From: Kiritimatiellia bacterium
GTDB taxonomy: Bacteria > Verrucomicrobiota > Kiritimatiellia > SLOV01
Assembly (NCBI GenBank): GCA_963578625.1
Contig: CAUZEO010000001.1
Coordinates: 14,188 to 78,187, forward strand
Direction of reading: 5' to 3'
Length of the DNA: 64,000 nt
A program made the translations under genes and the position numbers. The notes beneath the pieces are model-generated. The model saw only the letters and a list, made by a program, of their open reading frames with translations. It was not told the origin of the DNA and did not search any database. Positions 13,624 through 40,158 of this stretch are shown piece by piece; the first letter of the stretch is position 1; each line of letters opens with the position of its first letter.

Positions 13624-13676
13624 TATTACCACTGTCGACGCCGTTAATGGCCTTGAATCCCACAGGAGATTTTACG

Positions 13677-14190: not shown

Positions 14191-14262
14191 AATCCGGGAC
14201 CTCTGGACCGGCAACAGCGTCGCGTTCCTCATCGGCTCCAGCCTCGTGTGTATTCCTTGAAA

Positions 14263-14515
14263 TTAAGCAAACTTCAGAAAAGCTTCCTCGCACGTCAGCT
14301 CGTAAATCCGCACGTCCGTCGCCGGCAGGGCGGCGAGGAGCTTGACTCAATCACGGATCCAATGGTCTCCTGCACCACCTTCAAAAAATTCACAGGCGGA
14401 AACGGCCGGCCCCGGATGAAGTCGTTGCGGTAGCTCATGCCCCAGGGCAAGTCGTCGCGCTTGTGCCAAACATAGTCCGGCCGCTTGTCATTCGCCCAGA
14501 ATACCGGCGTGACGT
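14263..14515 (-). pseudogene. Remnant of a family-A gene
   Basis: 14263..14350 aligns to the 3' end of A1 (…CEDSFLKFA* region). 14351..14515 aligns to A1 7081..7250. About 220 nt between them, and everything upstream of them, is missing. Confidence 0.55.
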
Positions 14516-14523
14516 GGGGTTTA

Positions 14524-14557
14524 CTCCGCGTCTGTGGGCGCGGACTTCAGTCCGCAG
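14524..14557. repeat. 34-bp fragment of the 38941-type element terminus (inverted orientation)
   Basis: ccgcgtctgtgggcgcggacttcagtccgcagtg is the reverse complement of 38941..38974 with 2 mismatches. It abuts the family-A pseudogene breakpoint. Confidence 0.55.
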
Positions 14558-14666
14558 TGAGCAAAAAAAGAGGCGGGTCACAAACCCGTGCAGTAGTCGT
14601 GCCCGCCGACCCCGAAGGGTTGAGGCCCAGGAGCGCGATCATGGGGGAATGTTAACTTGCGAAGGT

Positions 14667-17899: not shown

Positions 17900-18793
17900 T
17901 TACCGTCGGCGACGAATCGCGAGGAGCAATCCGCCAAGGCCTAACAGGGCCAGGGTCCCGGGTTCGGGAATACTCATGTAAGTCTGAACCTCGCTCTGAG
18001 TCAGGAGACCGTCGAAGACCCTCAGTTCATCAATTTTGCCGAGGAATCCGCGGCCGGCGCCGGTGTGGGCATCGTGTCCACCGACTACGAAGTTTCCGCC
18101 CCAGTCTTGATCTATCCCTCCAAATCCCTGGGTGTCCTCCAGTACACCATTCACGTAGAGATGTTTTTCGTCCGAATCACTGTCCCACGTGGCTGCAACG
18201 TGAACCCATTCCTCCACGGCAAGTAGTCCGGATCCGCGGGCGGAGGCGACGTCACCGGCGGCTCTCAATTCAACACGCATGCCCGTATAGTTATGCTGAT
18301 TGTGCACGACGTAATTGAACGGATCGTTCCCCTTGACGACAATCCAGTTGGCATTATCCGGGTTGTTGAGGGCGTTATCGTTACCGTATCCAGTACCGTC
18401 ACCGTCGGTACCCCCGTCTTGCCTCATCCAGAACATGATTGATCCGCGGTTAGCCAACGCAAACGACGCATCATCTCCGAAGTACACGACGTCGCCAGTC
18501 GGACCTATAGGCATCCGGTCTCTCCGGGTCCCATGCACGGGAGGATCGTCGGCGATGCCGTCACCTCGTACGCCGTGGAACTGGAGGCCGCCCCCGCTAT
18601 GTCCTGTGGTCCAGTCCGAGTCGCTCTTCATGAACGAGAACTCCCCATGCTGAGGATTGGTGGCCACCTGGTCGAAGACGTTCGTTCCCGAGCCTTCGTT
18701 GAAGTTGTAATAGTGAGTCATGGTCACGCCACCCGCCTGGGCTATTCCTGCCGCGGCGAGAAACATAACGGTTACCGTTAGCATTTTCTTCAT
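17900..18793 (-). CDS. LamG-like (concanavalin A-like) secreted protein with PEP-CTERM anchor
   Basis: Signal peptide, LamG-like core shared with two upstream paralogs, and C-terminal IPEPGTLALLGLGGLLLAIRRRR (PEP motif, TM helix, Arg cluster). Confidence 0.85.
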   Translation of the reverse strand: MKKMLTVTVMFLAAAGIAQAGGVTMTHYYNFNEGSGTNVFDQVATNPQHGEFSFMKSDSDWTTGHSGGGLQFHGVRGDGIADDPPVHGTRRDRMPIGPTGDVVYFGDDASFALANRGSIMFWMRQDGGTDGDGTGYGNDNALNNPDNANWIVVKGNDPFNYVVHNQHNYTGMRVELRAAGDVASARGSGLLAVEEWVHVAATWDSDSDEKHLYVNGVLEDTQGFGGIDQDWGGNFVVGGHDAHTGAGRGFLGKIDELRVFDGLLTQSEVQTYMSIPEPGTLALLGLGGLLLAIRRRR

Positions 18794-19306
18794 TTTGCCA
18801 GTCTCTCCTTACTTTTTGCTACTTTTCGCCTGTTGGCGACAAACCACGCCTTAACTTCCTTCTCCGCACTACTTTACTACTTGCTTCACCATCTTCTGAC
18901 TCCCCCTAGTCCTTATCTATAATTTCACGACGGTAACCTGTCCGAATTTCCCTGTTCCGTCAAGACCTTATCTTTTTTTTTTTGCAACCAGTCATCTTGG
19001 CACTTATTAACAGCCAAGCTGTCAGCAACCTGTCAATAACCTCTCAGAAATGCCCCTTTTTCGTTAAAATCTTATCGTCTTTTTTTACTATCAGGGGGTT
19101 GAGGGGGGCAGGGAGCGAAAAAATCCTTGACTCATCGCAGGGTGTTTGGCCTAACGGAAGCTTCAAAACCGCCCTGTAGTAGAGGGTATCCTCGCCCGGA
19201 CTGGGGGGGGGCCTTTCGTTCAAGAAAGGCCCTGATCATCATAATGCCGGAATTTCCGTGAATATTTTGATTTCCGCTAAATGGAAGTGCATACACGGCC
19301 GCGTGT

Positions 19307-19433
19307 AGCTTGGTCCTCCAAGCCCGAGCCGGGGCAAGCGATGGTCATGATGTGGCGAATGCCTTGAGGCTTGCTCCAGCATTCGCTTTCCATGATCTCC
19401 TCCTGCCCGGGGTCGGGCTTGGAAACCCAACCT
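19307..19433. mobile_element. MITE-like element copy 1
   Basis: cttggtcctccaagcccgagcc … ggggtcgggcttggaaacccaacctac. Same termini and related interior (ttccatgatctcctcctgc vs ttctatgatcaccccttgc) as copy 2. Lies in the intergenic region between LamG genes. Confidence 0.55.
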
Positions 19434-19520
19434 ACTTTTCGCGAATGGGATAGCTTCTAGTATTGAAGCCACTTCATCGGGCCGTCGTCGCAAAGAACGC
19501 TTGAATTACTCGCAATAAAC

Positions 19521-19553
19521 AAAACGGGGCAGGTCCTGGAGGACCCGCCCCGC
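19521..19553 (-). terminator. Rho-independent terminator downstream of LamG paralog 2
   Basis: cggggcaggtcc...ggacccgcccc hairpin, followed on the minus strand by TTTTGTTTATT. Confidence 0.55.
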
Positions 19554-19600
19554 TCGAAGTTGCATTCCTTGTTCGTTAGCTATCGGCGGCGAATCGCCAA

Positions 19601-20686
19601 CTACTCCTCCAGAATCTGATACTGCGCCGTGTTGTCGAACCCGTTCGGATCGTAGAGACGCTGGGTCCCGCCATCGCCGACGATGCTGGCCCCGGCATCC
19701 AGGAACACGACGCTGGTGCTGTTGGAAACTTGCAGCACGTAATCTCTGCCGACCTCGCTATCGAACTGTAAAAACGTCGTGGGGCCCACCGTGACGGTTT
19801 CGAACCCGGGCCCCGGCAGGGGGATCGAGGCCATTTCAGCCTGCACGGCGGCATTATCCAGAAGCTCGTCGAAGATCTTCAGTTCATCAATCGCGCCGAG
19901 AAATCCGCGGCCGGTGCCTGTGTGGCTGTCATGCCCGCCGAGCACAAAGGGTCCCCCCTGGTCGTTCAATCCGCTCCAGGAATCGGCACTGTTGCCCACT
20001 AAGTCACCGTCGACCCACAGCCGTACCGAATTCGATGCCGAATTCCAGCCGACCACAAAATGCACCCATGTTCCTACAGGCAGCGGAGAAGGCGCTGCTA
20101 TGTTCGGGCCACCATTCAATTCGATGCGACCGTGGTATGCTGCATTCGGCTGATTGTGAAGGAGATACGAGAACGGATCCGAACCATGAACTACGAGCCA
20201 GTTGGAGTTATCCGGGTTGTTGATGGCTCCGGCTTCACCGTATGCACTACCGTCACCGTCGGGACCCGGGTCCTGCCGCATCCAGAACATGATGGTGCCG
20301 GTGCTGGTCAACGCGAAGGATGCATCGCTACCGAACCGGACCACGTCGTTCTTCGGACCCTGAGGCTCCCGGTCAAGCCGGGTCGGATGAACCTGTGGGT
20401 CATCGAGGATGCCGTCGCCCCGCACGCCGTTGAACTGCAGGGCGGTTCCGCCCCCGATCAGCGGCGAGTCCACCCAGTCGTTGGTCGGGTTCTTCCCTGC
20501 GCCGAACGTGCCGTGCTGCGGATTAGTGATCACCTGGTCGAACACGTTCGTTCCGGCCCCTTCGTCGAAGTTGTAGTAGTGAATCATGGCCGCCTGAGAG
20601 CCGGCCGCGCACAGGAAGCACGCCGCAGCCGCGGCGGCAATCACTGTGGCTGTCCATCTGTTCGTTTTCATCTGAATTTTCTTCAT
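19601..20686 (-). CDS. LamG-like secreted protein (paralog 2, no PEP-CTERM)
   Basis: Signal peptide and LamG core homologous to 17900..18793 (HYYNFDEG.GTNVFDQV.TNPQHG, GVRGDGI.DDP.VH.TR.DR), plus an extra C-terminal beta-sandwich. Confidence 0.8.
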   Translation of the reverse strand: MKKIQMKTNRWTATVIAAAAAACFLCAAGSQAAMIHYYNFDEGAGTNVFDQVITNPQHGTFGAGKNPTNDWVDSPLIGGGTALQFNGVRGDGILDDPQVHPTRLDREPQGPKNDVVRFGSDASFALTSTGTIMFWMRQDPGPDGDGSAYGEAGAINNPDNSNWLVVHGSDPFSYLLHNQPNAAYHGRIELNGGPNIAAPSPLPVGTWVHFVVGWNSASNSVRLWVDGDLVGNSADSWSGLNDQGGPFVLGGHDSHTGTGRGFLGAIDELKIFDELLDNAAVQAEMASIPLPGPGFETVTVGPTTFLQFDSEVGRDYVLQVSNSTSVVFLDAGASIVGDGGTQRLYDPNGFDNTAQYQILEE

Positions 20687-20708
20687 GGTTTCTCCACGTG
20701 ATTTTGAA

Positions 20709-21893
20709 TCAGTCCAAAATTTCGAATTGGTAGCTGCCGTTGGGGTCCCCGTCGGGGTCGTAGAAGTTGACGGGATCGCCTGTCCCCTTCACAAGAGGTC
20801 CTACTGGGATAAAGTTCCCCGCCACCAGGTCGGTGGCTCGCTTCAGCTGGTAGTTTTTGTTGGCCTTGGTGCTCAGGCTCATGATGACGGCACCGGTCAC
20901 CGGATCGGGGACCCAGGGAATCGTCCCCTCGGGCGCGGCCGGCACGATCGCCATTTCGGCCTGAACTTCCTGCGCGGTCAGGGCGGTATCGAAGATCTTG
21001 AGTTCATCAACGCCGCCAAGGCAACCACGTCCCGAACCCGTCTGGCCCGGCTGCCCGCCGACATACAAAGAGCCGGTCGCAGTGAGTAGACCGTTGAAAC
21101 CGTCGTTTACGGCGACTTCCACGCCGTCGACGTAGAGGAAGGATTCCCCGTCGCCGTAATACCCGCCGGTTTTCGTCCAGGTCGTGGCGATGTGGACCCA
21201 TTCCCCAGTCGGCAGCGGACTCGGTGACCTCAAATCGATCTCACCCATTTTTCCCTCGAACCGAAGACCCAGTCCTTGCGAAGGCTGATGGTGGAAAACG
21301 TATGGATCTATGCCGACGGGTCCCTTGTAAATAATCCAGTTCGCATTGTCCGGGTTGTTGATGGCGCCGTCGCCACCGTACGGGCTGCTGCCGTCGCCGT
21401 CGGGACCCGGATCCTGGCGGTACCACATCATGATTGTTCCCTCGTTCGTAAGATCGAAGGAGGCGTCCGGCCCGAATTGCACGTAAGCATTCTGCGGGCC
21501 CAGCGGCACCCGGTCACGCCGGGTTATATGAACGGGTGGGCTGTCTTTGATGCCGTCGCCCCGCACGCCAGGGAACTGAAGCGCGTTCCCCCCGTTCACC
21601 AGAGGGGAGGAGATCCAGGCGCTGGCTGGATCCAGTTGGGCTCCGAATGTCCCGTCCTGAGAATTGGTCTTTACCTCGTCCTTGGTCTGAGTACCGCCCC
21701 CCTCGTCGAACCGGTAGTAATGAACCAATGCTGCCGGACCGCTGACCGCGGCCACCAGCATCCACAGCCCCGCAACCGGAACCATGTAGCGCGTTGCTTT
21801 ACTTCTCATCCTGGTCTCCTTTCGCTGGATAAAACGACCGGATGAACAATCCGTACATCCGGCGATTGAATGCGACTTCGTCGGCCTCTCCAT
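20709..21893 (-). CDS. LamG-like secreted protein (paralog 3)
   Basis: Signal peptide, the same LamG core, and a C-terminal beta-sandwich extension. Confidence 0.8.
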   Translation of the reverse strand: MERPTKSHSIAGCTDCSSGRFIQRKETRMRSKATRYMVPVAGLWMLVAAVSGPAALVHYYRFDEGGGTQTKDEVKTNSQDGTFGAQLDPASAWISSPLVNGGNALQFPGVRGDGIKDSPPVHITRRDRVPLGPQNAYVQFGPDASFDLTNEGTIMMWYRQDPGPDGDGSSPYGGDGAINNPDNANWIIYKGPVGIDPYVFHHQPSQGLGLRFEGKMGEIDLRSPSPLPTGEWVHIATTWTKTGGYYGDGESFLYVDGVEVAVNDGFNGLLTATGSLYVGGQPGQTGSGRGCLGGVDELKIFDTALTAQEVQAEMAIVPAAPEGTIPWVPDPVTGAVIMSLSTKANKNYQLKRATDLVAGNFIPVGPLVKGTGDPVNFYDPDGDPNGSYQFEILD

Positions 21894-22121
21894 GGGCCAG
21901 AGGGCCCGACCTCGCGCAATCTAGGAAAGATACCTCCCCCGCAAACGGGCTGGCAACAAAAAAATCATTGAATATCGGCATAACTACGTTTAGCATTCCA
22001 TTGCTTAACGGAGCGGTGATCCGACCCGAAAATCGGGTCGCTTCCGTCGATGATACATCACGGATGCGTGACTACGGCAGGAGATCCGGAAATGCGTTTT
22101 TGCAAGAAAGTAAAGCAAAAC

Positions 22122-22949
22122 ATGGAAAGTTCCTCACGTAACTCAGCCCGAAGGTTCATTGAGTCGCTGGCTTGCCGGCCGAAGTCTTCTGTGCCCGCGA
22201 CTGCGTCGGTGGGGTGGAGGCAAGCCCGGTCAGGATTCACGCTCATCGAACTGTTGGTGGTCATCGCTATCATCGCGGTGTTGTCGGCGATTCTGCTCCC
22301 GGCCCTCCGGGAAGCGCGACTGCGTGCCTATACCGCATCCTGCCTGCCGAATATTCGAGGCGGGCACCTGGTCCAGACCCAGTACGCGCTCGATAACGGA
22401 GGCGAATATGCGGAGGCGCCTGAGCATTTGCCGGATTACTACCGGGAGGGAGGCCCATACCAGGGGAGCCGCCGGCAGAAGTTCGAGGATTATGTTTCGA
22501 ATTACAAGATCCTCTCCTGCCCCTATCACAACTATACGATGCGGAGATTTCGGGCCGATCGGCATTGGCGCCGGGAGTGGGCCACCAGCGGCCCCGCCGA
22601 CACCTACAATTTCTGCCACATGAACTACATGTGGATGGGCAACTACGTGAAGGGAATCTCTGCCTACTATAACGGGGAGCTCCCGTGGCCGAAGTCCATG
22701 GATGAAAGCACTCCGGACCGCGTGCTGGTCACCCACCGGATCAACCTCATCAAGGGATACGGAGCCCAATTCGAAAGCCACAACAATGCATTGGAAGTGC
22801 TGGGCGTCCGGCGGATCCAGCAGCCGGAAAAGGAGCTGGCCGGTTTGAAGGAGAACCCCGTTGGATATGCCGATGGTCATGCCCTCGTCATCCCGGCCGA
22901 AGACATCGTGCGGCGCGTAAAAACTGGGTCGGGAACTCTGTTTTATTGA
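22122..22949 (+). CDS. Prepilin-type N-terminal cleavage/methylation domain (DUF1559-like) protein
   Basis: [25 protein letters not shown] pseudopilin N-terminus, C-terminal …[13 protein letters not shown]. The ORF starts at 22050; the Met at 22122 gives a shorter leader. Confidence 0.75.
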
Positions 22950-22958
22950 GGTTGTGGA

Positions 22959-23729
22959 ATGGACGACGAGGCACGAGACTATGACAGTCTTGAAATCCGA
23001 GATTCGAAATCAGCCTTCACGTTGATTGAGCTTCTGGTGGTCATCGCTATCATCGCGGTGCTGTCGGCGATTCTGCTCCCGGCCCTCAGGGAAGCGCGAC
23101 TGCGTGCCTACACCGCATCCTGCCTGCCGAATATTCGGGGCGGGCACCTGGTCCAGACCCAGTACGCGCTCGATAACGGAGGCGAATATGCAGAGGCGCC
23201 TGAGCATTTACCGGATTATTTCCGGGAGGGAGGCTCATACCAGGGGAGCCGCCGGCAGAAGTTCGAGGATTATGTTTCGAATTACAAGATCCTCTCCTGC
23301 CCCTATCACAACTATTCGATGCGAAAATTTCGGGCCGATCGGCATTGGCGCCGGGAGTGGACCACCAGCGGCCCCGCCAACACCTACAATTTCTGCCACA
23401 TGAACTACATGTGGATGGGCAACTACACGGCGGGAATCTCTGCCTACTATAACGGGGAGCTCCCGTGGCCGAAGTCCATGGATGAAAGCACTCCGGACCG
23501 CGTGCTGGTCACCCACCGGATCAACCTCATCAAGGGATACGGAGCCCAACTGCTCAGCCACAACAATGCGCTCGACGTGCTGGGCATCCGGCGTCTCCAG
23601 CAGCCGGAAATGGAACTGGGCGGGTTGAAAGAAAACCCGGTCGGATATGCTGATGGCCACGCACTGGTCATTCAGGCCGAAGACATCGTACGGCGTGTGA
23701 ACAGCGGCAGGGGAGTCCTGTTTTACTGA
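22959..23729 (+). CDS. Prepilin-type N-terminal (DUF1559-like) protein, tandem paralog
   Basis: [25 protein letters not shown]. More than 90% nucleotide identity to the upstream gene across ~700 nt. Confidence 0.75.
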   Translation: MDDEARDYDSLEIRDSKSAFTLIELLVVIAIIAVLSAILLPALREARLRAYTASCLPNIRGGHLVQTQYALDNGGEYAEAPEHLPDYFREGGSYQGSRRQKFEDYVSNYKILSCPYHNYSMRKFRADRHWRREWTTSGPANTYNFCHMNYMWMGNYTAGISAYYNGELPWPKSMDESTPDRVLVTHRINLIKGYGAQLLSHNNALDVLGIRRLQQPEMELGGLKENPVGYADGHALVIQAEDIVRRVNSGRGVLFY

Positions 23730-25428: not shown

Positions 25429-27687
25429 ATGAACCACAAAACATCAGCGTCCCTGCCCAGGATACGCATCGCTCCGATCCACAACCGTCCCGTTGTCCCT
25501 GAAGAAAACCCACGGTTCGAGACGCTGGATCCAAAGCCGGTGGCCCGGCGGGACCTGCCCAAGGACTTCCAGGAGAGTGTGCAGATGGGGTGGAACGACT
25601 ACCTCATCTACAACATGATGTTCGACTACGACTTTGCCACTGCGATTCGTCCGTTTAGCGCGTGCATGTGGTTCAACGAGCCGGAGGACGGCGAAGTTCC
25701 CGGCTGGCGGGATGTCGCGAGAAAGTATGCGGAAAAGGGACTGATCCTGGAGAGCATCTGGGGGATTCGCCACGGCATGCCCTTCCGGTCCGGCAGCGGG
25801 GAAATGACCGTGCCGGAAGAGGTTCACCAGTTCCTGCTCGAGACGTTCGGGCCCCGGTTCTGGGGGTGGGAGAACGGTGAACAGGACCAGGAATACTGTG
25901 CGCACTATGTCTTCGGGTCGTATGGATGGACGCCACAGCCGTCCGAGCGAAGTCGCAAAGAGGCCTACGAGGATTTCGTGCGCTTTTCCAAGGGAACCCT
26001 CGACCGGATGTTCCACGATTACTCCGTCTCCATCGGTGCCCAGGGGTTTTGCCACTATTACGGTGAAATGGGCCTCCGGATGATCGGCCTCGAGCTCAGC
26101 ACGGGACTTCCCAGTTCGATCCTGCGCTGCGCCTTTCTGCGAGGCGCGTCGAAGCAGTACGATTTGCTCACCCACAACCAGATCTCGATCTTTCTCCGCA
26201 GCCCCGAGCAGAAACCGTTTTTTTCATCGTCCAGGGTCTTTCCCAGCGAAGGCCGTGGGCTGCGGGTCGAGTGGCAATATGCGCACCCGGACGGCGGCAC
26301 GCCGTCTCACCTGTTCAAGCGGCTGTGGTTTTCCTCCTACATGTACGGCGTCAGCGCGCTGGGCACCGAGGGCGGCCTCTTTTATGACGACGTCGCATCA
26401 TTGCCCCGTCACTATCAAGGGATCGAGGCCGTCGGGGTCCGGCCGCCATCAGAGGCGACGAATGACAAGGATTTCTACCACCCGACGGATGCATCGGGGG
26501 ACGCGTCGAGGAAATCCCTGAACCGGCCCGCGGAACTGGAACATAACCTGACCCCGCTGGGCCGTGACTTTCGCGAGTGGGTATTCACCACCCGGGCGCA
26601 TCCGGACCGCGGGGTGATGTATGCGCCGGTGGCTCTGGTGATGGATTTCCACCACGGATGGTGTCCGCCGGTGCACGTCGGCATGGGCCAAAGCCGGCCG
26701 GAGCATGTGTGGGGAAACATTCCCTACCAGCTTGGGGACTACCACATCGACCAGTTCTTCCACTGGATTTTCCCCGGCTACCTGGAGTTCGCCTATGCGA
26801 TCAACGGCCGGGGGTGCCTGACGCCCACCCCGTTCGGCGACTCGTTCGACGTGCTGCTCACGAATGCCTCGCTGGATGTGTTCAACAAGTACCAGGCCGC
26901 GGTGCTGCTCGGAGAAATGCCCGATGAACCGGACTTCGCGGCGACGTTGGAGGCATTTGTCCGTTCAGGCCGAACCGTGGTCCTGTGTACGCGGCAGATG
27001 ACCGGCGGCCTTGCAGATCTTGCGGGCTTGGAAATCAAGGATAGGGATCTGGAAAGCTCGACGTCGACGAGCCTGGTGACCGGAAAGAGTTACAGGGAGA
27101 CCGCCTATCTCTATGACCTTGTTGAGGCGAAAGACGCAGACGTGCTCGCGGTAAACGATGCCGGACATCCGCTCGTGTGCGTGACCAGGGTGGGAGAAGG
27201 TCTGATTTTCGTCATCACGCCGGTCTACTGGGCCACCGGCAGGCGACCCGATCATAAGTTGGAATTTATCGAGGGATTGCCTTGGGGCAAACATTTCATG
27301 AACGAATATTTTCGTGGCCGGCAGGCGGCCCCCGTGCACTTTCTGGAGGTGGTGCAGGAGGTCATCGGGCAGGTCTTTGAATCGTATTCGTTGATCGAGT
27401 TGACCGGGCGGCCTCTCCAGTACATCGTCAACGTGACCAACGAAGCGGATAAACTTCTGGTCACACTCATCAACAACGGCGAAGCTCAATGGGACGGTCG
27501 GCTCTCGGTGAAAGGACAACGGATCAAGCGATGCGTGGAGTGGCTCTCGAGATGCGAGACCTGCATCGAGGACGGTGCACTGTTGGCGGCCGTACCCGCC
27601 ACCGATGTGCGGATCTATGAATTGACTTGCGAGGAGTCGTTCCTCACTCTAGCCCCCCCGGCTGGAACCTTGGCTCCCGCACCATGA
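25429..27687 (+). CDS. Uncharacterised large protein, family A copy A2
   Basis: 752 aa, collinear with A1 and A3. The B1 gene starts 18 nt downstream. Confidence 0.85.
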   Translation: MNHKTSASLPRIRIAPIHNRPVVPEENPRFETLDPKPVARRDLPKDFQESVQMGWNDYLIYNMMFDYDFATAIRPFSACMWFNEPEDGEVPGWRDVARKYAEKGLILESIWGIRHGMPFRSGSGEMTVPEEVHQFLLETFGPRFWGWENGEQDQEYCAHYVFGSYGWTPQPSERSRKEAYEDFVRFSKGTLDRMFHDYSVSIGAQGFCHYYGEMGLRMIGLELSTGLPSSILRCAFLRGASKQYDLLTHNQISIFLRSPEQKPFFSSSRVFPSEGRGLRVEWQYAHPDGGTPSHLFKRLWFSSYMYGVSALGTEGGLFYDDVASLPRHYQGIEAVGVRPPSEATNDKDFYHPTDASGDASRKSLNRPAELEHNLTPLGRDFREWVFTTRAHPDRGVMYAPVALVMDFHHGWCPPVHVGMGQSRPEHVWGNIPYQLGDYHIDQFFHWIFPGYLEFAYAINGRGCLTPTPFGDSFDVLLTNASLDVFNKYQAAVLLGEMPDEPDFAATLEAFVRSGRTVVLCTRQMTGGLADLAGLEIKDRDLESSTSTSLVTGKSYRETAYLYDLVEAKDADVLAVNDAGHPLVCVTRVGEGLIFVITPVYWATGRRPDHKLEFIEGLPWGKHFMNEYFRGRQAAPVHFLEVVQEVIGQVFESYSLIELTGRPLQYIVNVTNEADKLLVTLINNGEAQWDGRLSVKGQRIKRCVEWLSRCETCIEDGALLAAVPATDVRIYELTCEESFLTLAPPAGTLAPAP

Positions 27688-27705
27688 CCAAGGAAAGGAT
27701 ACACG

Positions 27706-30700
27706 ATGAAGAAGGTCCGGTTTCTAATGCGCAGCGGGCAAATTGCTGCCTTGTGCGGCTTCCTTGCATCATCACCCCCCGGTTTTGCGCAAACGCCGGC
27801 GACCCTACTGGAGACCACACCCGGCACCTGGGTCGCAGCGGCAGACATGGGCTGGTACAACCGGCATGATTTTGCAGACGCTGTGCTGCAGCACTCTTCG
27901 GTTCACCTGAAAAAGCGGCTGGACCTGTCGTCCATGGACGAAACGGCCTGGGACGGAATCCGCGCGGCTGAAATCAGCGTCTTCGTGATGTCGGAGGGAG
28001 AGGCGGAAGATGAGAATTTCGAGATCGTCCTGAACGGTCATGTCTACACGTTCCCGGCCCGGGGTTGGGTCCACGAAGGGCAGGGTTGGTTCCAGGATTA
28101 CGAAGCCAGGCGCTGGTTTGATTTTCCCATCGAAATGAAACACCTGGCCCGGGGCGTCAACGAGATCGAGATTCGAATGGCGGAGGGCAAGGAAACTGCT
28201 CAGAACCGAATCAAGATCGGCATCGATATCTTCGAGGATCTCGGCAACAGCAGTGCATCGTTCGACGGTGGAAAGACCTGGCAGCAGGGGCCGCTGAACC
28301 AGGTTCTGAAACGGGTAGGCTACCCGCACTATGGCCACCGCGGCGAGTTGATGGTGCGGTTGAACCTGTACGAAGACGCCGGCGACCTCGGCGAGCGCCC
28401 TCCGTTCAGTCATGACGACCTGCCGGCGCTGCCGCCGATCGACCTGAACCCCCCGGTGAAACCGTTGGCCGTCCCCGATGCACAACCCGCCACCTACACG
28501 CCCGGCGAGCAGGAAGACGTTTTGGAGAACGGCTGGATGCGTCTGCACATCGGTCATGCCGGCGGCCTGTCACTGAGTCGTTTCGTTCACAAGCCGATGG
28601 ACGCCGACATCCTCACCCGGACGGAGAACCCATTGTTCGCGCTGGATATCGACGGCCGACTCGTCTCCAGCCGGGACCTGTCCGTGTTGAAACGGACGCA
28701 GGAGTCTGCCTCACCCGGCGAATGCAAGGTGAGGATCGGGATGCGCGACGAGCCAAGCGGTCTATCCGTCGAGCTTTCCCTTCGTTTGGGCACGGACCGG
28801 GAGTTGAGAGCCGGACTCTATCTCAAGAACGAGAGCGAAGAGACCCGCCTCGTGAAGGCCGCGTTTCCCCTGTTGTCGGGTATTGGATGGAGCGAGGGAT
28901 TCGCTGACGACTACTACATGTTTCCCTACGCCTCGGGCGCGATCGCAAATCATCCCGCGAAGTTTTTGTCTCCTTATGGCGGCGGCACAGGCTCGGGCGG
29001 AAGCTGGATGCAGCCCATGGCGTCGTATTCGCCCTCGGCCGGCGGCGGCGTCTACCTCTTCCCCCGGGACCCGAGCGGCGGCTACAAGGTGCTTCATCTC
29101 ACGCGCACCGACGCAAGCGGCGCCGACCCAGCCTTCGCCTTCCAGGGTCTCGTCTTCAACATGCTCAACGGGCAGGCCACGGCCGGCTACGCGCTCCTCG
29201 AGCCGTTGCCGGACATTCCGGGAACCGGTATGGCGGTCAGCTACATGCAGCGGGAACTGGAACCCGGCGACCATTGGATTCTCCCCACGACTGCGATCGG
29301 CGTCATGAACGGAGGCTGGCAGGCCGCCATGGACGCGTACCGACGCTGGTTCGAAAGCTGGTGCCACAAGCGGCCGTGGCCGGGAAAGCTGTCGGACCGG
29401 TTCGCGATGAGCGGCGACAGCTTTGCCCACCTGTACCGCGACAAGGCGGGGTATCACACAGAACTCCATCGCTGGGGAGATCTAAACCCGCTGGATATTC
29501 CCGGGTACTTCGAAAACACCCCTGATCTGATCGATCTTACGTCGTGGTGGGAATGGGATCACGTGACCGACGAGTACATGGAGGAGATGCGCGAGATCGC
29601 GCGCGGGGCAGGCATGGAATTCAAGCTCTGGCCGGGCCGGCATGGCGAAACCGAAGGCAGGCACTACAACTGGGGAAACCAGGGCGCCTACGGGCTGCAA
29701 GGCTATAACGAGCGCTGGGGTGGGCTGGCGGCATTCCGTCAATGGATTTCCGACATGAAGGCCCGGGATCTCGGCGTGGTGCTGTACATCAACGAGGGCG
29801 AAGCATGCCTGTCGAGCGAGATCGGCCGGAAACACGGCGCCGACTGGAGCATCATGTGGCCCGAAGGCAACTACTTCTGGCCCTTCATGATGTGGGAGAT
29901 GTGCGTCGACAATCCGCTCTGGCGCCGGCACCTCGCCGAGACCTGCAGCCGCATCGTGGCGGAAACGGGGAGCGACGGCCTGTTCATCGATGAGTTCGGC
30001 GGCGCAGCGCGTATCTGTCACAACCCGGGGCATGAACACACGTTTGCGGAACGTCCCGGCGACTATGTTACGTTTCAGGGTCAGGCGGAGGCATGCCGCC
30101 AGATCCGGCAGGCCGTGGACCGGGTCGACCCCGACGCGGTGCTTCTAACCGAATCCACCGGCATTGACGTCATGTGGCAATACCTGGATGGGTGCGGGAA
30201 CTACGACCTGTCGGCCAGTCCGCTCACCGGCCACCGGGCCGGGAACTGGGACGGGTTCGCGGGACTCAACATCGCGCGCTTCTACTTCCCCCGCCAAAAG
30301 CACTACGACTACGAATATGCGACGCGGCACCCGGAGTGGCGATTCTTCAATGCCACCGGCGCCTTCAACCGGGAGTTTGGCTACAAGAACCATGAAACCC
30401 AGATTTTGAGAGAGAATGCAGACGCCATCAGCACGCTGGAGCCGCGGCCGATGATTCCCACCCTTCTGCGGAGGGTCTACGTCAATGAGTTCCCCGCAAA
30501 GGACAAGACCATCTACATGGTCTACAACGCGCGCAGGGAACCCGTGGACGGTGATCTGATGAAGATCAAACACATGGACGGCTTTCACATGGTGGACCTG
30601 CTGCGATGCGGCAACGTAGAGATCAAAATCAACGGGTCCGGAGCCGTCATTCCCATCGATCTGCCCGCGCGCTCGGTCACCTGCCTGGCGTATCTGCCGG

Positions 30701-30948
30701 AATTCGCGAGCACCAGGAGAACCCGGAATGGCCTCCAGGTGCATGTTGCGGAAAGCTCAAGCGCGACGAAAGGCCGGATCGTCAATGATCGCGGCACGGC
30801 GCTCGCGGAAATTGAATTAACGCAGGGGCGGGCAAACGTTGAAACCGGAAAGGGCGCGGCATGGGACCGGGATTGGCTGGTGAAGGTGTACGAAGGGGAT
30901 CGCCTGGTGGATGCTCTCGCGCCGATCGATGACCCAATCGGAAAGTAA
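27706..30948 (+). CDS. Uncharacterised large secreted protein, family B copy B1 (putative TIM-barrel glycoside-hydrolase-like)
   Basis: 1080 aa with a signal peptide. Strongly conserved core with B2, B3 and B4: YGLQGYNERWGGL.AFR, LY.NEGEA.LSS, MWEMCVDNP.WR, DG..IDEFGGA.RIC.NPGHEHTF, NYDL, FYFPR.K..DY, FNATGA.N.E, PMIPTL, VYVNEFP. Confidence 0.85.
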   Translation: MKKVRFLMRSGQIAALCGFLASSPPGFAQTPATLLETTPGTWVAAADMGWYNRHDFADAVLQHSSVHLKKRLDLSSMDETAWDGIRAAEISVFVMSEGEAEDENFEIVLNGHVYTFPARGWVHEGQGWFQDYEARRWFDFPIEMKHLARGVNEIEIRMAEGKETAQNRIKIGIDIFEDLGNSSASFDGGKTWQQGPLNQVLKRVGYPHYGHRGELMVRLNLYEDAGDLGERPPFSHDDLPALPPIDLNPPVKPLAVPDAQPATYTPGEQEDVLENGWMRLHIGHAGGLSLSRFVHKPMDADILTRTENPLFALDIDGRLVSSRDLSVLKRTQESASPGECKVRIGMRDEPSGLSVELSLRLGTDRELRAGLYLKNESEETRLVKAAFPLLSGIGWSEGFADDYYMFPYASGAIANHPAKFLSPYGGGTGSGGSWMQPMASYSPSAGGGVYLFPRDPSGGYKVLHLTRTDASGADPAFAFQGLVFNMLNGQATAGYALLEPLPDIPGTGMAVSYMQRELEPGDHWILPTTAIGVMNGGWQAAMDAYRRWFESWCHKRPWPGKLSDRFAMSGDSFAHLYRDKAGYHTELHRWGDLNPLDIPGYFENTPDLIDLTSWWEWDHVTDEYMEEMREIARGAGMEFKLWPGRHGETEGRHYNWGNQGAYGLQGYNERWGGLAAFRQWISDMKARDLGVVLYINEGEACLSSEIGRKHGADWSIMWPEGNYFWPFMMWEMCVDNPLWRRHLAETCSRIVAETGSDGLFIDEFGGAARICHNPGHEHTFAERPGDYVTFQGQAEACRQIRQAVDRVDPDAVLLTESTGIDVMWQYLDGCGNYDLSASPLTGHRAGNWDGFAGLNIARFYFPRQKHYDYEYATRHPEWRFFNATGAFNREFGYKNHETQILRENADAISTLEPRPMIPTLLRRVYVNEFPAKDKTIYMVYNARREPVDGDLMKIKHMDGFHMVDLLRCGNVEIKINGSGAVIPIDLPARSVTCLAYLPEFASTRRTRNGLQVHVAESSSATKGRIVNDRGTALAEIELTQGRANVETGKGAAWDRDWLVKVYEGDRLVDALAPIDDPIGK

Positions 30949-31069: not shown

Positions 31070-31984
31070 ATGAGTACTATCTGTGCGTTAACGAGTTTCG
31101 CGAGCACCAGGTTGCTTGCGACGGGAGTGGCCCTTATCATTGTCTTTCAATGCACGACGCGGGCGGCTATGCAAGTCGACTCGAAAATGAAAATCCTACA
31201 AAGTGAATCACCCGACGGCGCGGATCTGGACGTTGTGTTGCCTGGCGCATCGTCGCCCGCATTTCGTATCCTGTTGCCGGAGGAGATCCAATGCACACTT
31301 CTCCCCGAGGACATCAGTCTGAAAATCGGCGGTCTGCACCGGCTGCCCGGCGTGTGGCGCCGGACCGAGCAGAAGACGACCGGCACCATGACAAAACCGG
31401 GCCTCCTCGAGCTGTCGATCGAACTCGAACACGGCGATTCGGGCGTCGGCATTCGCATGGAAGTCAAAAACCTGTCCCCGTGGACGCTTCACCACGTGGA
31501 GGCCGATGTGTGCGCGAATATCAATCATCTGCCGGGCACGCCCGCCTGGTGTAATCGCCGATTCATTCCCGACTCCATTCCGCTGGTGCGGAACGAGCAG
31601 GCGAAATTCTGGTTTGAACAGGTGACACCCGAGGGGCTGAAAGCATTTACGAGCCAAGGTTGGGAAAGCATGCACTTGTTCAAAGACAATCCGGACACGC
31701 GGCGAGTTCCGTCCTATTTCTTCATCGACAATCCGTCGCGGCCGGCCTACGCGTGTGCGGTGCCTTCGCTGGATGGGAAAACGCTTTTCTATCAAGCCTG
31801 GAACACCGGATGCCGCGCCCAGGCCCCGTTTCCCGGCAACGCGTGCATGCACCTGCATCCCCGCATCGCGGACACGATCGAACCGGGCGGGACCGCAAGT
31901 ATCCGGGGCCGCATCGGCCTGTTCGATGGCGGTCTGGACGGCCTGCAGCGCAAGATCATTGCTGAGTTGCGCCCCGAAACTTGA
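31070..31984 (+). CDS. Hypothetical secreted protein
   Basis: 304-aa ORF with a hydrophobic N-terminus and protein-like composition. The antisense ORF is Arg-rich and typical of GC artefacts. Confidence 0.5.
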   Translation: MSTICALTSFASTRLLATGVALIIVFQCTTRAAMQVDSKMKILQSESPDGADLDVVLPGASSPAFRILLPEEIQCTLLPEDISLKIGGLHRLPGVWRRTEQKTTGTMTKPGLLELSIELEHGDSGVGIRMEVKNLSPWTLHHVEADVCANINHLPGTPAWCNRRFIPDSIPLVRNEQAKFWFEQVTPEGLKAFTSQGWESMHLFKDNPDTRRVPSYFFIDNPSRPAYACAVPSLDGKTLFYQAWNTGCRAQAPFPGNACMHLHPRIADTIEPGGTASIRGRIGLFDGGLDGLQRKIIAELRPET

Positions 31985-36319: not shown

Positions 36320-38524
36320 TCAGGCGAACTCGAGGAACGACTCCTCACAGGTCAGTTCGTAGATCCGCACATCTGTCGCCGGCACGGCGGCCTTCAGCCT
36401 GCCCTTCTTGATCATGGCCTCCCCGCTGGAGAGCCACTCGAGACATGACTCGATTTTCTGGCCCTTGACCTTCACCGTTCCCTCCCAGGTTACCTCCCCG
36501 TTGTTGACCAGGGTGACCAGGAGTTTGCGCGGGTCGTCGGTAACGTTCACGATCCACTGGATGGGCCGCCCCTTGACCTTGATCAGGGAGGTTGACTCGA
36601 TCACCGAGCCCACGATCTCCTGCACGACCTTGAGGAAGTTCGGCGGCGGAAACGGACGGCCCCGGATGTAGTCGTTCCGGTAGTTCATGTCCCAGGGCAA
36701 ATCGTCCCGCTTGTGCCAGACGTAGTCGGGACGCTCGCCGGTGGCCCAGAACACCGGCGTGACCACATAGACGCTGCCTTCGCCCACCCGGTTCACGCAA
36801 ACCAGAGGATCGCCGGCATCGTTTACCGCGAGCACCTCGGCGCCGTCGGATTCGACCTTGTCGTAGATGTACTCCGCCTCCTTGTAGCTCTTTCCCGTGA
36901 CCAGGCTCTTCGAGCCCGTCCCCTTCGCGTCCGTTTCCTTCACGCGCAAGCCGGCGAGGTTTGCGAGGGTTCCCCTGAGTTGGCGCGTGCAGAGGACGAC
37001 GGTCCGCCCGGCCCGGACAAACGACTCCACGTTGGCCGCGAAATCCTCGTCGTCGGGCATCCCGCCCAGCAGGACCGCGACCTGGTACTTGTTGAGGACA
37101 TCCATCGACGCGTTGCTCAGGATCACATCGAACGAATCGCCGAGCGGGGTGGGCGTCAGGCATCCCCGGCCGTTGATCGCGTAGGCGTACTCGCCATAGT
37201 TCGGAAAGATCCAGTGGAAGAACTGATCGATCTGGAAATCGCCCAGGGTGTAGTCGATGTTACCCCAGACTTTCTCCGGATGGCCCTGCCCCATGCCTTT
37301 GTGGATGGGCGGGTTCCACCCGTGGTGGAAGTCGAGCACCAGGGCCACCGGCGAGTACTGCACACCGCGGTCCGGGCGCGTCCGCGTGGTCCACACCCAC
37401 TTGCGGTACTCCCGGCCGAACGGCGTGAGGTTGGCCTCCAGGTCGTGCCCCCGTTGGACGTTCTGCTTCTTCATCGCGCCCTTGATGTCGCCCACCCAGG
37501 AGTCTTCCCCTTTCACCGGGATCTCCGGCCGGATCCCCTCCGCCTCGATGGTCGAGAACTCCTTCGGCAAGGCACACATGTCGTCGTAAAAGAGCCCACC
37601 CTCGGTGCCGCACAGACTCAATCCGTACATGTAGCCGGCGAACCAGAGGCGCTTGGCGAGGTGGGTGGGAACGCCGCCGTCGGGGTGGCCGAACATGAAC
37701 TCGACCTTGATGCCGGGGCTGTTCCTCGGGAAACACTTCGTGTTGTAGAAGTCGGGTTTCTGCTCGATGCTGGGCATGAACATGGAGATGTGGGCGTGGG
37801 TGAGCAGGTCGTACTGGCGGGCGGCGCCGCGCAAGAACGCGCAGCGCATGATGCTGCTCTGCAACCCGGTGCCGAGTTCCAGGCCGATCATGCGGTGACC
37901 CATCTCGCCGTAGTAGTGGCAGAAGCCCAGGCTTCCAATGGAGACAACGTGGTGATGGAAGAGGGCGTCGAGGGTGTCCCTGGAGAACCGGACAAAATCC
38001 CCGTAGGCCTCCTTGCGGCTTCGGTCGGGTGATTGCTCAGGCCATTCGTAGGAGCCGAAGACATATTGGGCGCAGTACTCTCCGTCCTGCTCCCCGTTCT
38101 CCCATCCGAGAAACCGCGGCCCGAAAATGTCGAGCAGGAACCGGTGGGTTTCCTCCGGCACCACCGCCTCGCCGGTGCCGTTGAAAAAGTCCATCCCGTG
38201 CCGGATGCCCCAGATGCTGTTGAGGATCAGTCCCTTCTCGGCGTACTTCTTCGCGATCGCCCGCCACCCCGGCTGTTCGTCCTCGATCTGATCGGACCAC
38301 ATGTAGGCACTGAAGGGCCGGATGGCGGTGGCAAAATCGTAGTCGAACATGGTGTTGTGGATGAGGTAGTCCTTCCACCCCATCTGCACGCTCTCCTGGA
38401 AATCCTTGGGGAGGTCGCGGCGGGCCACCGGCTTCGGGTCCAGTTGTTCGTACCGCTCGCCCTCCTCCGGGACGATGGCCTTGTTGGGGATGGGCTGCAG
38501 TTTCAATTCAGGCAAATCGGGCAT
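36320..38524 (-). CDS. Uncharacterised large protein, family A copy A3
   Basis: 734 aa, collinear with A1 and A2. Confidence 0.85.
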   Translation of the reverse strand: MPDLPELKLQPIPNKAIVPEEGERYEQLDPKPVARRDLPKDFQESVQMGWKDYLIHNTMFDYDFATAIRPFSAYMWSDQIEDEQPGWRAIAKKYAEKGLILNSIWGIRHGMDFFNGTGEAVVPEETHRFLLDIFGPRFLGWENGEQDGEYCAQYVFGSYEWPEQSPDRSRKEAYGDFVRFSRDTLDALFHHHVVSIGSLGFCHYYGEMGHRMIGLELGTGLQSSIMRCAFLRGAARQYDLLTHAHISMFMPSIEQKPDFYNTKCFPRNSPGIKVEFMFGHPDGGVPTHLAKRLWFAGYMYGLSLCGTEGGLFYDDMCALPKEFSTIEAEGIRPEIPVKGEDSWVGDIKGAMKKQNVQRGHDLEANLTPFGREYRKWVWTTRTRPDRGVQYSPVALVLDFHHGWNPPIHKGMGQGHPEKVWGNIDYTLGDFQIDQFFHWIFPNYGEYAYAINGRGCLTPTPLGDSFDVILSNASMDVLNKYQVAVLLGGMPDDEDFAANVESFVRAGRTVVLCTRQLRGTLANLAGLRVKETDAKGTGSKSLVTGKSYKEAEYIYDKVESDGAEVLAVNDAGDPLVCVNRVGEGSVYVVTPVFWATGERPDYVWHKRDDLPWDMNYRNDYIRGRPFPPPNFLKVVQEIVGSVIESTSLIKVKGRPIQWIVNVTDDPRKLLVTLVNNGEVTWEGTVKVKGQKIESCLEWLSSGEAMIKKGRLKAAVPATDVRIYELTCEESFLEFA

Positions 38525-39174: not shown

Positions 39175-40158
39175 TTAGCTCTTATATTCCCATACCCACC
39201 GGGAATCATTTTCGTCCCCGTGTATGGACAGACCTCTCGCACCCTTGAGCCCGTCATAGATCTCGTTCATTTCATCAATCGAATCAAAGAATCCGATGAC
39301 GTAAGCTGCGCCGAACGTGCCACCTGCCTTGACCGGACGGCCGCCGATCTCCTGGATGAAGCAGACGTACCCGCGTTGATGACACCAGCCTTCGTATGCG
39401 TCGGCGGGATCCAGGGTCATCCCCGCGAGCCAGGGATCGATTCCCGATTCCGTTCGTATGCGATAGGCGCGGATAAACCGGTCGGGAAGGTTGGCGTCAT
39501 CCCGCTGGTAGAGCGTCTTTCCATCCGGTGGAAAATCTTCGAGAAACTCCGAACTCGGCAGCGTACCCATGTGGCTGAGGTAGATCTCCGAAAATGAATC
39601 CGCGGCCCGGTGCTTCAAATGGCCCGGCATATCGATTCGCAAGATCAGCGCATCGGAATCGTTGACACTCGTGACCCGGTCACTCGCGAAAAAGTAGCGC
39701 CGCCCGTCGGGGAAAACGAGCACCTGTTCCCATCGCGAACCGGACTCGGACCCCTCAATCGACTGGTTCCAATTCCACCACTGTCGGACCGCAACAAAGC
39801 CGTCCCCGCGATAAACGGCGTAGGGAAGCCGCCTTGCCTGGGTGCAAATCTGGGGCAGTTCGATATATCGCTTGATCAGGTTGCCGTGTGACGGCTCGTC
39901 TTCTCCCCAGGGATAGGGATGCGTGGCATCCTGTTCAACGCCTTCCGCGGGCTCGAGAAGAAAGTCAATAATGTCGAGCCCGAATCCGAGGTCGGTTCCC
40001 CCCGTTTTCCGGTCCCGGAACGAACCGCCCTTCACACCGCTGACGAATCCTGCGCCGACGGACTGATCACCGATCGTATAGCCCTCCGTCGCGACAGTCG
40101 CGGTAAACGAATCCGTCTCGATTTGGATCTCGGTTCCATCAATTGAGAGATCCGCCAT
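39175..40158 (-). CDS. Hypothetical protein
   Basis: 327-aa ORF with good protein-like composition and no signal peptide. Co-directional with the downstream GH-like gene. Confidence 0.55.
   Translation of the reverse strand: MADLSIDGTEIQIETDSFTATVATEGYTIGDQSVGAGFVSGVKGGSFRDRKTGGTDLGFGLDIIDFLLEPAEGVEQDATHPYPWGEDEPSHGNLIKRYIELPQICTQARRLPYAVYRGDGFVAVRQWWNWNQSIEGSESGSRWEQVLVFPDGRRYFFASDRVTSVNDSDALILRIDMPGHLKHRAADSFSEIYLSHMGTLPSSEFLEDFPPDGKTLYQRDDANLPDRFIRAYRIRTESGIDPWLAGMTLDPADAYEGWCHQRGYVCFIQEIGGRPVKAGGTFGAAYVIGFFDSIDEMNEIYDGLKGARGLSIHGDENDSRWVWEYKS

Follow-up and report, generated by a model that had tools for sequence, protein, structure and literature searches.

We sought to determine whether two adjacent genes of a Kiritimatiellia bacterium (Verrucomicrobiota), here called A and B, constitute an undescribed two-gene system, as the original prediction had it, and what kind of proteins they encode. 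The window, i.e., the whole stretch of DNA analysed, comprises 64,000 nt of assembly GCA_963578625.1 (contig CAUZEO010000001.1, positions 14,188 to 78,187 of the forward strand), and the host is an uncultured marine member of the Verrucomicrobiota. Marine Verrucomicrobiota and related PVC bacteria break down recalcitrant algal and microbial glycans with an enzyme repertoire that is largely unannotated. No enzymatic evidence was found for the A or B family, and a literature search for “DUF6259” or “PF19773”, the Pfam family to which B belongs, returned no paper. In our judgement, A and B are probably two new glycoside hydrolase (GH) families of known fold classes within a large glycan-utilisation locus. 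The explanation that we favour, with some reservation, is that of two glycoside hydrolases from uncharacterised families, located in a paralog-rich glycan-utilisation region and paired in a lineage-specific manner.

The gene pair and its paralogs

The ORF list and inspection of the N-termini agree with the predicted arrangement, in which A, without a signal peptide, is followed after a short spacer by B, which carries one (Table 1). A hydrophobic N-terminus is absent from A and from both of its paralogs in the window (maximum Kyte-Doolittle 12-mer 0.4-0.6). The spacer contains a Shine-Dalgarno-like AAGGA/AGGA motif (AAGGAAAGGA), and its shortness, together with this ribosome-binding site, suggests that A and B are co-transcribed in this genome. 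There is no terminator-like site between the two genes beyond chance level, and a promoter and terminator scan of the 24-32 kb portion of the window yielded nothing above shuffled expectation. Both families had also been described as multicopy, and blastp indeed recovered three A genes and three full-length B genes; the B family is further represented by a C-terminal fragment and by an N-terminal domain encoded on its own. The base composition of the window is uniform, with no island signature, and neither tRNA genes nor Rfam matches are present in it.

Table 1. Coordinates of genes, domains, candidate residues and paralogs (positions in the window; aa, residues of the respective protein)
Feature	Position	Strand	Description	Basis
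Gene A	25429..27687	+	752 aa, ATG start, predicted cytoplasmic	ORF list
A (β/α)8 barrel			aa ~40-395	
A GATase1/GH42M-like domain			aa ~396-600	
A C-terminal β-sandwich			aa ~640-745	
A E151, candidate acid/base	25879..25881	+	in FWGWE-N-G-E-QD, just past predicted barrel strand β4	model secondary structure
A E222	26092..26094	+	IGLEL strand; 99% conserved (112 family members), invariant in barrel alignment A4	
A E314, candidate nucleophile	26368..26370	+	ALGTEGG, end of predicted barrel strand	
A-B spacer	27688..27705	+	18 nt, CCAAGGAAAGGATACACG	sequence
Gene B	27706..30948	+	1080 aa, ATG start, exported DUF6259 protein	ORF list; PF19773
B signal peptide	27706..27789	+	aa 1-28	sequence and hydrophobicity
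B N-terminal β-rich domain	27793..28410	+	aa ~30-235	model secondary structure; paralog relation
B galactose-mutarotase-like β-supersandwich	28468..29310	+	aa ~255-535	
B catalytic (β/α)8-type domain, DUF6259 core	29323..30405	+	aa ~540-900	Pfam DUF6259 at residues 653-819
B Cys/His set C733, C771, H776, H778	29902..30039	+	MC...IC-H-N-P-G-H-E-H	
B D762, predicted catalytic nucleophile	29989..29991	+	DGLFID	
B E816, predicted general acid/base	30151..30153	+	LLTES, end of predicted strand, 54 residues past nucleophile	
B C-terminal β-sandwich domains	30418..30930	+	aa ~905-1075	model pLDDT 77-91; conservation
A paralog	6795..9002	-	735 aa, 67% identity; GH42M 23.4 bits; no B copy adjoins	blastp
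A paralog	36320..38524	-	734 aa, 66% identity; GH42M 27.6 bits, above gathering score 25.8	blastp
Stand-alone homolog of B N-terminal domain	46060..47025	-	321 aa; no Pfam match	blastp
B paralog lacking N-terminal ~245 aa	47144..49879	-	911 aa, 43% identity	blastp
B paralog	52391..55612	+	1073 aa, 51% identity; PhyH dioxygenase gene precedes	blastp
Fourth B-family gene, C-terminal part, running off window end	63151..64000	-	45% identity to B residues 800-1075	blastp (match 63151..63975)

Gene B and its relationship to GH36 enzymes

The N-terminus of B (MKKVRFLMRSGQIAALCGFLASSPPGFA) is a plausible Sec signal with predicted cleavage between GFA and QT, weaker than the signals of its paralogs (KD 1.6 vs 2.1-2.6). 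We call the protein exported rather than secreted because in a diderm host the periplasm, the outer membrane and the medium are indistinguishable as destinations. A lipoprotein assignment was rejected, since a cut between AALC and G does not fit the lipobox. A single Asp-box-like motif, SASFDGGKTW, is located in the N-terminal domain, where the BNR match is weak, and the C-terminal β-sandwich domains contain an invariant N927. The AF2 model of B has low confidence across the catalytic domain (pLDDT 25-50 at residues 540-680 and 816-874; pTM 0.39), so that the fold matches depend mainly on the β-sandwich domains.

B is a member of DUF6259 (PF19773), which it matches with 48.4 bits at a gathering score of 28.7; its paralogs score 48.4 and 50.5 bits, and PF19773 is found in all 17 homolog clusters. 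Clustered at 50% identity, the family comprises about 1,800 groups, with 1,827 representatives retrieved at E<=1e-3, and includes sequences from rumen and human-gut metagenomes. As the original prediction anticipated, neither protein falls into a characterised family, the Pfam match of B being itself uncharacterised. NCBIfam has nothing for A or B, and single-sequence phmmer searches of either protein against PDB gave nothing meaningful. Weak Pfam matches to GHL15, GH66 and alpha-amylase are present in the DUF6259 region of B and all of its paralogs, the Pfam Glyco_hydro_36/Melibiase models do not match any of these proteins at E<=0.1, and GH36 structures were reached from B only by the deep family profile (E 3e-6 to 6e-5).

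Against PDB, this profile (A3) matched Cwp19 (1.6e-6), the GH36 enzyme FpGalNase (3.2e-6), GH13 (3.4e-5) and the GH36 enzyme AgaSK (6e-5), and further GH151 (2e-4), GH168 (3.5e-4) and GH66 (1e-3). The identification of B as a GH168 endo-1,3-fucanase, a lead that had also appeared at E 0.014 in a separate search, was discarded, the match being one of several within the superfamily and carrying no family assignment; published work on GH168 gave no help in assigning residues. Among the closest known proteins is FpGalNase, the alpha-D-galactosamine galactosaminidase of Flavonifractor plautii (PDB 9awt, 8x1b), at about 11% identity. Like FpGalNase, B displays the layout of GH36 (clan GH-D), i.e., an N-terminal β-supersandwich, a (β/α)8 barrel and a C-terminal β-sandwich in the same order, to which it adds an N-terminal domain of ~230 aa and a second C-terminal sandwich. 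The two proteins also share an upstream Cys (...LC...) and a C-x-N-P-x-H-x-H motif (...C-Y-N-P-A-H-N-H in FpGalNase). The listed aligned stretches of canonical GH36 alpha-galactosidases end at or before the nucleophile. Cwp19 (Clostridioides difficile, GHL10 TIM barrel, 5oq2) and GH13, GH66, GH114 and GH168 enzymes align with the B profile from β3 to β5, including the D-G-(I/V)-x-x-D strand. The alignment to the Cwp19/GHL superfamily spans ~140 residues (E-values 1e-6 to 1e-3); in the Cwp19/GHL/alpha-galactosidase superfamily, the Cys/His motif is absent from the displayed alignments, and the accessory domains differ from those of B.

The motif blocks that the original prediction had picked out in B are present and include residues that are the best conserved in the family, and their reading as a glycosidase-type TIM-barrel active-site region is borne out: the DG..ID block holds D762, which is 100% conserved in 124 representatives (<=50% identical to one another) and aligns with D463 of FpGalNase in the A3 alignment. 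D463 is the experimentally validated nucleophile of this GH36 enzyme, and the D463A mutant is nearly inactive (PMC11762096). The mutant entry 9ayu scores 22.8 bits with profile A3, compared with 28.7 for the wild type, and this drop of ~6 bits pins D762 to the nucleophile column. The general acid/base of B may be E816, which is also 100% conserved in the 124 representatives; D821 is conserved in 89%. In GH36, the general acid/base is an Asp on β6 (Asp532 in FpGalNase), whereas the invariant acid located 54 residues downstream of the nucleophile in B is a Glu. The GH36 nucleophile lies at the end of β4 in a K-x-D motif; at the position of its Lys, B has F760 and its family R or Y.

C733, C771, H776 and H778 are 92-97% conserved and could form a metal site or an active-site scaffold; we found no literature tying FpGalNase to zinc. 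Such near-invariant residues beside the nucleophile are unusual for clans GH-D and GH-H, and some of the A3 matches are transferases (CITase of GH66; GH13 enzymes), as might be expected if one or both proteins were not hydrolases, B being a transglycosylase, a glycan phosphorylase-like or a Cys2His2 metal-dependent enzyme, and A a barrel enzyme without hydrolytic activity, or else a binding protein, built on a GH42 scaffold. We regard this alternative as very improbable, given that FpGalNase, a bona fide hydrolase, has the same Cys/His motif.

Gene A: a GH42-like architecture with a divergent barrel

The three-domain fold of GH42 (clan GH-A) is found in A, and its closest known counterparts are GH42 beta-galactosidases (4oif, 3tts, 1kwk) and a GH164 beta-mannosidase (6t5o), at 8-13% identity. 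By sequence, the middle domain resembles GH42M-type domains: the A-family profile matched 7bob at 3.4e-6 and 6t5o at 6e-3 in PDB, and the Pfam GH42M model, while remaining under its threshold in A itself (14.1 bits vs 25.8), exceeded it in one of the paralogs (Table 1). The barrel-only profile A4 retrieved no PDB chain at E<=10, the Pfam catalytic-domain model PF02449 is absent from A, its paralogs and 20 barrel sequences at E<=1, and Pfam yielded no match of any kind on the A barrel sequences; the catalytic residues of A are therefore not alignable to those of any GH by sequence.

Clan GH-A enzymes carry the acid/base Glu after β4 and the nucleophile Glu after β7, and A similarly has a conserved Glu after the predicted β4 and another one ~160 residues on. 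Judging from the secondary structure of the model, the first of these, E151 (95% conserved in 112 family members and invariant in A4), is a candidate acid/base, and the second, E314 (85% conserved in the same set, with Q, S or C instead in one subclade of A4), might act as the nucleophile by analogy with β7 of clan GH-A. The most conserved acidic residue of the family is E222, which belongs to an invariant polar cluster in the barrel (E151, H209, Y210, E222, R238, Y244 and R298). This extra invariant Glu distinguishes A from GH42, as do an N-G-E motif in place of N-E and a long insertion of disordered sequence (residues 323-365). A Cys4 zinc site occurs in some GH42 enzymes.

The barrel without a detectable GH signature and the dispensability of E314 in one subclade add to what can be said for non-hydrolytic proteins, against which stands a genomic context dominated by glycosidases and sugar transport: the window encodes a GH123 enzyme, a GHL6/fucosidase-like protein, an ABC sugar transporter, dehydrogenases and PhyH dioxygenases.

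The A-B neighbourhood across genomes

In GTDB species genomes, nearly all of them uncultured, the A family is present at 204 loci or more. Viewed from the A side, a B-family gene lies within 10 kb of an A-family gene in 3 of 77 GTDB loci; viewed from the B side, an A-family gene is found near a B-family gene in 3 of 37 metagenome loci, which were scanned with alignment A2 as query. At such frequencies, the “tight two-gene module” or “undescribed system” of the original prediction is not general, and the comparison across genomes comes close to “no conserved A-B neighbourhood”, with co-location surviving at the level of a clade. The two genes directly adjoin each other only in the lineage of the window itself (L001-L003; L014, 93% identity) and, with their order reversed, at L092. 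In the close verrucomicrobial clade where the families are co-located, gene order varies (A-B, B-A, B-B-x-A): L014 has A and then B; L092 has two B genes with A straight after the second, overlapping at the B-to-A junction; in L004, two B genes are followed by URO-D and A; and in L006 and L094, B is ~9-10 kb away from A.

The adjacency might also be incidental, with glycosidase-like enzymes acting on different substrates or linkages juxtaposed by duplication and shuffling (three A and at least four B paralogs). In agreement with this, a B copy adjoins just one of the window's three A genes, partners are as scarce as the above fractions indicate, the closest B homolog outside the window for which flanks are available (P0059, 69% identity) has PhyH rather than A as its neighbour, and the neighbours of A vary across phyla (of 77 loci, 14 have GFO/IDH/MocA-like, 9 BNR_2-like and 8 URO-D-like genes). 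Nevertheless, close relatives with enough flanking sequence keep both families within ~10 kb in several gene orders, including the overlap at L092, and the short spacer with its ribosome-binding site suggests co-transcription; we consider incidental adjacency somewhat unlikely. That the two families stay close despite rearrangement speaks for a functional link of some kind within this clade. The A-B pairing is a lineage-specific arrangement within a larger locus, and not an obligate two-protein system. The largest cluster of apparent A neighbours consisted of antisense ORFs of A itself and was discarded.

Possible roles of the two proteins

With respect to hydrolysis, anomeric specificity, substrate and an outside/inside division of labour, the following scheme, which takes A and B as two glycoside hydrolases, is what we infer. 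B would leave the cytoplasm through Sec and, once outside, cleave a polysaccharide or a large oligosaccharide; it would most likely be a retaining glycosidase in which D762 is the nucleophile and E816 the acid/base. A would most likely be a cytoplasmic exo-glycosidase acting on imported oligosaccharides, with E151 as a candidate for the acid/base and E314, E222 or both as candidates for its partner. An extended version of this scheme, which we think unlikely, is that A and B found two new CAZy families cooperating on a marine glycan in one verrucomicrobial clade, with C...C-x-N-P-x-H-x-H being a metal site by the nucleophile, a feature that to our knowledge has not been described for clan GH-D enzymes. 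The target in that case could be an amino-sugar-containing polysaccharide, in view of the kinship to a galactosaminidase and of the neighbouring isochorismatase-like and CN_hydrolase genes.

DUF6259 was hitherto without an assigned function, structure or mechanistic hypothesis, and the GH36 link, the candidate catalytic pair and the conserved Cys/His motif are new for this family, while the catalytic barrel of A lies outside the coverage of Pfam, NCBIfam and PDB. With candidates for mutation now named (D762 and E816 in B; E151, E222 and E314 in A) and FpGalNase as a solved relative of B, both families become directly testable and could give CAZy two more GH families, which for glycobiology would be an incremental gain and no new kind of system. 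In other genomes, GH106, GH78, GH1, GH29 and BNR_2 genes are found beside the homologs. The isochorismatase-like and CN_hydrolase neighbours are of the amidase type.

Gene pair and its paralogs

Genes A and B lie exactly where the original prediction had placed them, separated by an 18-nt spacer (CCAAGGAAAGGATACACG) that contains a Shine-Dalgarno-like AAGGA/AGGA. Inspection of N-terminal sequences agreed with its distinction between A without a signal peptide and a secreted B: a hydrophobic N-terminus is absent from A and its paralogs, and the sequences of B and its paralogs open with a basic stretch, then a hydrophobic one, then an AxA-like site. Both families were also correctly described as multicopy, with the three A copies being 66-75% identical to each other. 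One B paralog lacks the N-terminal domain of ~300 aa, and a gene directly downstream encodes that domain only, so that together they represent a split, or fission, form of the architecture of B. No Pfam model matches the domain, which displays only a single Asp-box-like motif.

Features of the window (paralogs identified by blastp among window ORFs)
Feature	Coordinates	Strand	Description
A	25429..27687	+	ORF, 752 aa
B	27706..30948	+	ORF, 1080 aa
A paralog	6795..9002	-	
A paralog	36320..38524	-	
B paralog	52391..55612	+	51% identity
B paralog	47144..49879	-	43% identity, no N-terminal domain
B-family C-terminal fragment	63151..63975	-	gene leaves window
B N-terminal domain only	46060..47025	-	stand-alone gene
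PhyH paralog	5089..5940	-	Fe(II)/2-oxoglutarate dioxygenase type
PhyH paralog	42315..43055	+	dioxygenase
PhyH paralog	45140..45967	+	dioxygenase
PhyH paralog	51316..52221	+	dioxygenase
ABC transport fusion 1	60224..63112	-	962 aa, SBP_bac_1 + BPD_transp_1
ABC transport fusion 2	58326..60206	-	626-aa permease
GH123 protein	56324..58204	-	
Region without long ORF	12873..14667		
GH123-like fragments	13094..13623	+	
Apparent pectate-lyase-fold start	13589..13984	+	frameshift-broken
Laminin_G_3 trio	17900..21893	-	tandem
N_methyl pair	22050..23729	+	tandem, prepilin-type
Signal-peptide-like N-terminus or no Pfam match	43161..45233	-	
Same category	39175..40158	-	
Same category	31070..31984	+	
Same category	5879..6802	-	

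Protein B and the GH36 family

B matches the uncharacterised Pfam family DUF6259 above threshold (48.4 bits), and GHL15, GH66 and alpha-amylase models match all B paralogs weakly over the same stretch. An exhaustive profile search recovered 1,827 representative proteins at E<=1e-3, of which 400 remained at E<=1e-30; a literature search found no paper mentioning the family. Distant members, about 27% identical to B, are frequently encountered on metagenome contigs from human gut and rumen (L102-L123); the family therefore extends beyond marine PVC bacteria.

Among 124 representatives with pairwise identity of 50% or less, D762, E816 and N927 are 100% conserved, and Y694, C733, C771, H776, H778 and R858 are 92-97% conserved. 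The diverse 63-sequence B profile A3, run against PDB, matched Cwp19 (GHL10, E 1.6e-6), the Flavonifractor plautii galactosaminidase FpGalNase (GH36; 8x1b and 9awt, E 3.2e-6 and 3.4e-6), trehalohydrolases (GH13, E 3.4e-5), AgaSK (GH36, E 6e-5), 6tvk (GH151, E 2e-4), 8ya6 (GH168, E 3.5e-4) and CITase (GH66, E 1e-3). The FpGalNase stretch D-G-F-K-G-D...C-Y-N-P-A-H-N-H is aligned with D-G-L-F-I-D...C-H-N-P-G-H-E-H of B, and, since the D463A mutant entry 9ayu scores ~6 bits below wild type against A3, the column of the invariant D762 corresponds to FpGalNase D463 in this alignment. The latter residue belongs to the K461-x-D463 motif, and replacing it with alanine almost abolishes activity (PMC11762096). 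The conserved block was thus rightly taken for a glycosidase TIM-barrel active-site region. In a Foldseek search GH36 enzymes came out on top (E 4e-13, ~900 aligned columns) with a B model that is poor in the barrel (AF2, overall pLDDT 60.7, pTM 0.39).

B is a remote relative of the GH36 FpGalNase branch, inside the alpha-galactosidase/GH13-like barrel superfamily, with D762 as the predicted nucleophile and E816 as the likely acid/base. It differs from GH36 in the absence of the Lys of K-x-D (F760 in B, R or Y in the family), in its second invariant acid, which is Glu instead of Asp, and in its additional N-terminal domain; moreover, Pfam GH36 models give no match to B. In common with FpGalNase, it has a conserved Cys/His set near the nucleophile, which may bind metal or shape the site, and on which nothing was found in the accessible literature.

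Protein A and the GH42-like fold

The only Pfam match of A is a sub-threshold one to Glyco_hydro_42M (14 bits; paralogs 23-28 bits, one above threshold), and searches of NCBIfam and, by phmmer, of PDB gave none. The family appeared small in a word-indexed search, with 56 clusters, all “hypothetical”, and GTDB species genomes, scanned by pattern, yielded 204 loci, nearly all in MAGs, which represent Verrucomicrobiota, Planctomycetota, Armatimonadota, Latescibacterota, Kiritimatiellia, Lentisphaerae, Clostridia and Acidobacteriota.

The AlphaFold2 model of A, built from a 37-sequence alignment, is confident (pLDDT 84.6, pTM 0.90) and matches GH42 (4oif, 16.6; 3tts, 16.5), GH164 (6t5o, 16.4), GH35-like 7vkw (15.4), Op5Man5 (7bob, 15.1) and GH151 (6tvk, 13.7). 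These matches span 400-500 residues at 8-13% identity, and the proposed GH42-like layout therefore holds at the level of architecture. By sequence, the barrel is an orphan: PDB is reached by the family profile solely via the GATase1-like middle domain, and a barrel-only profile gave 0 matches in PDB at E<=10 and 0 in Pfam. Across 112 family members, conservation is highest at R238 (100%), H209 and E222 (99% each), followed by E151 (95%, within N-G-E after predicted beta4), Y210 and R298 (93% each) and E314 (85%, within G-T-E-G; Q/S/C in one subclade). The arrangement of acid/base and nucleophile in clan GH-A is well established, and E151 and E314 appear to resemble these two residues, respectively, by linear position and motif.

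Association between A and B

The pair had been viewed as a tight two-gene module, which does not hold in general. In 77 GTDB loci with flanks of up to 10 kb, a B-family gene was near A in three: L014, which holds the 93% identical ortholog, and two loci from Armatimonadota, where the DUF6259 proteins are distant. Conversely, 3 of the 37 metagenome B loci carry an A-family gene, all three among the closest B relatives (42-44% identity), while distant relatives, some from rumen and human-gut samples, are adjoined instead by GH78, GH106 and GH1 genes; in the window, a B copy adjoins just one of the three A copies. Clustering of neighbours in the 77 loci revealed no fixed partner of A; the neighbours include GFO/IDH/MocA-like (14 loci), BNR_2-like (9), URO-D-like (8) and DUF6785 (7) genes.

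Co-occurrence does recur within the close clade, in varied orders: A then B in the window and L014; B, B, then A, with the start of A overlapping the final codons of the second B, in L092; B, B, URO-D, A in L004; and B ~9-10 kb from A in L006 and L094. Such arrangements argue against an obligate pair, and we read the recurrence as joint membership of a single glycan-utilisation locus type within one lineage, weakly supporting a shared pathway there. URO-D (uroporphyrinogen decarboxylase-like) genes, unexpected in a glycan locus, are repeatedly direct neighbours of A-family genes, in several lineages (L004, 8551..9663; L006, 12226..13308 and 19846..20898), and their products may be enzymes of methyltransferase or decarboxylase type that act on modified sugars.

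The designation of an undescribed system was too strong: A and B are best described as members of uncharacterised glycoside hydrolase-like families within known fold classes, GH42/GH164-like for A and GH36-related DUF6259 for B. Unsurprising in a PVC genome, they nevertheless offer useful candidates that can be tested as new CAZy families, with defined, if predicted, catalytic residues. Exported B would cleave a polymer or large oligosaccharide by retaining double displacement, with D762 as nucleophile and E816 as acid/base; the oligosaccharides could be imported, e.g. via the ABC system at 58326..63112, and cytoplasmic A would remove terminal residues as a GH42-like exo-enzyme. One may speculate that the substrate is a deoxy-sugar- or amino-sugar-containing heteroglycan, because the neighbours include rhamnosidases, fucosidase-like proteins, GH123 and amidase-type genes (isochorismatase-like, CN_hydrolase).

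Source and genomic surroundings

Proteins identical to A and B are encoded on metagenome contigs of marine and aquatic origin, among them JGI 3300031802 and an 80.5-kb contig also in NCBI; the closest GTDB genome is the uncultured Verrucomicrobiota MAG containing L014. Composition is uniform (~59% GC), and searches for tRNA and Rfam RNA across the window found none. The genes present are consistent with a PVC bacterium that carries a large region for glycan utilisation: PEP-CTERM/Laminin_G_3 and N_methyl proteins, GH123, a GHL6/fucosidase-like protein carrying a GH42M domain, ABC sugar-transport components, four PhyH dioxygenases, several dehydrogenases and one arylsulfotransferase-like protein.

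The transport components include unusual fusions, the 626-aa permease having a long N-terminal extension and a weak Glyco_hydro_42 match. The PhyH genes are scattered among glycosidase genes, one being directly upstream of the 51% identical B paralog; the same order recurs beside a 69% identical B homolog elsewhere (L010/L011, PhyH 6526..7419), and PhyH genes are also found near distant A homologs (L008, L009). PhyH may be a recurrent partner.

The three Laminin_G_3 paralogs are 44-56% identical, one ending in a PEP-CTERM sorting signal, and are followed by the N_methyl pair (89% identical). The four genes with signal-peptide-like N-termini or no Pfam match include a 690-aa orphan. The region without a long ORF probably contains a deleted or frameshifted GH123 pseudogene, since fragments there resemble the N-terminal and C-terminal ends of the GH123 protein; the apparent start of a pectate-lyase-fold protein is found there as well.
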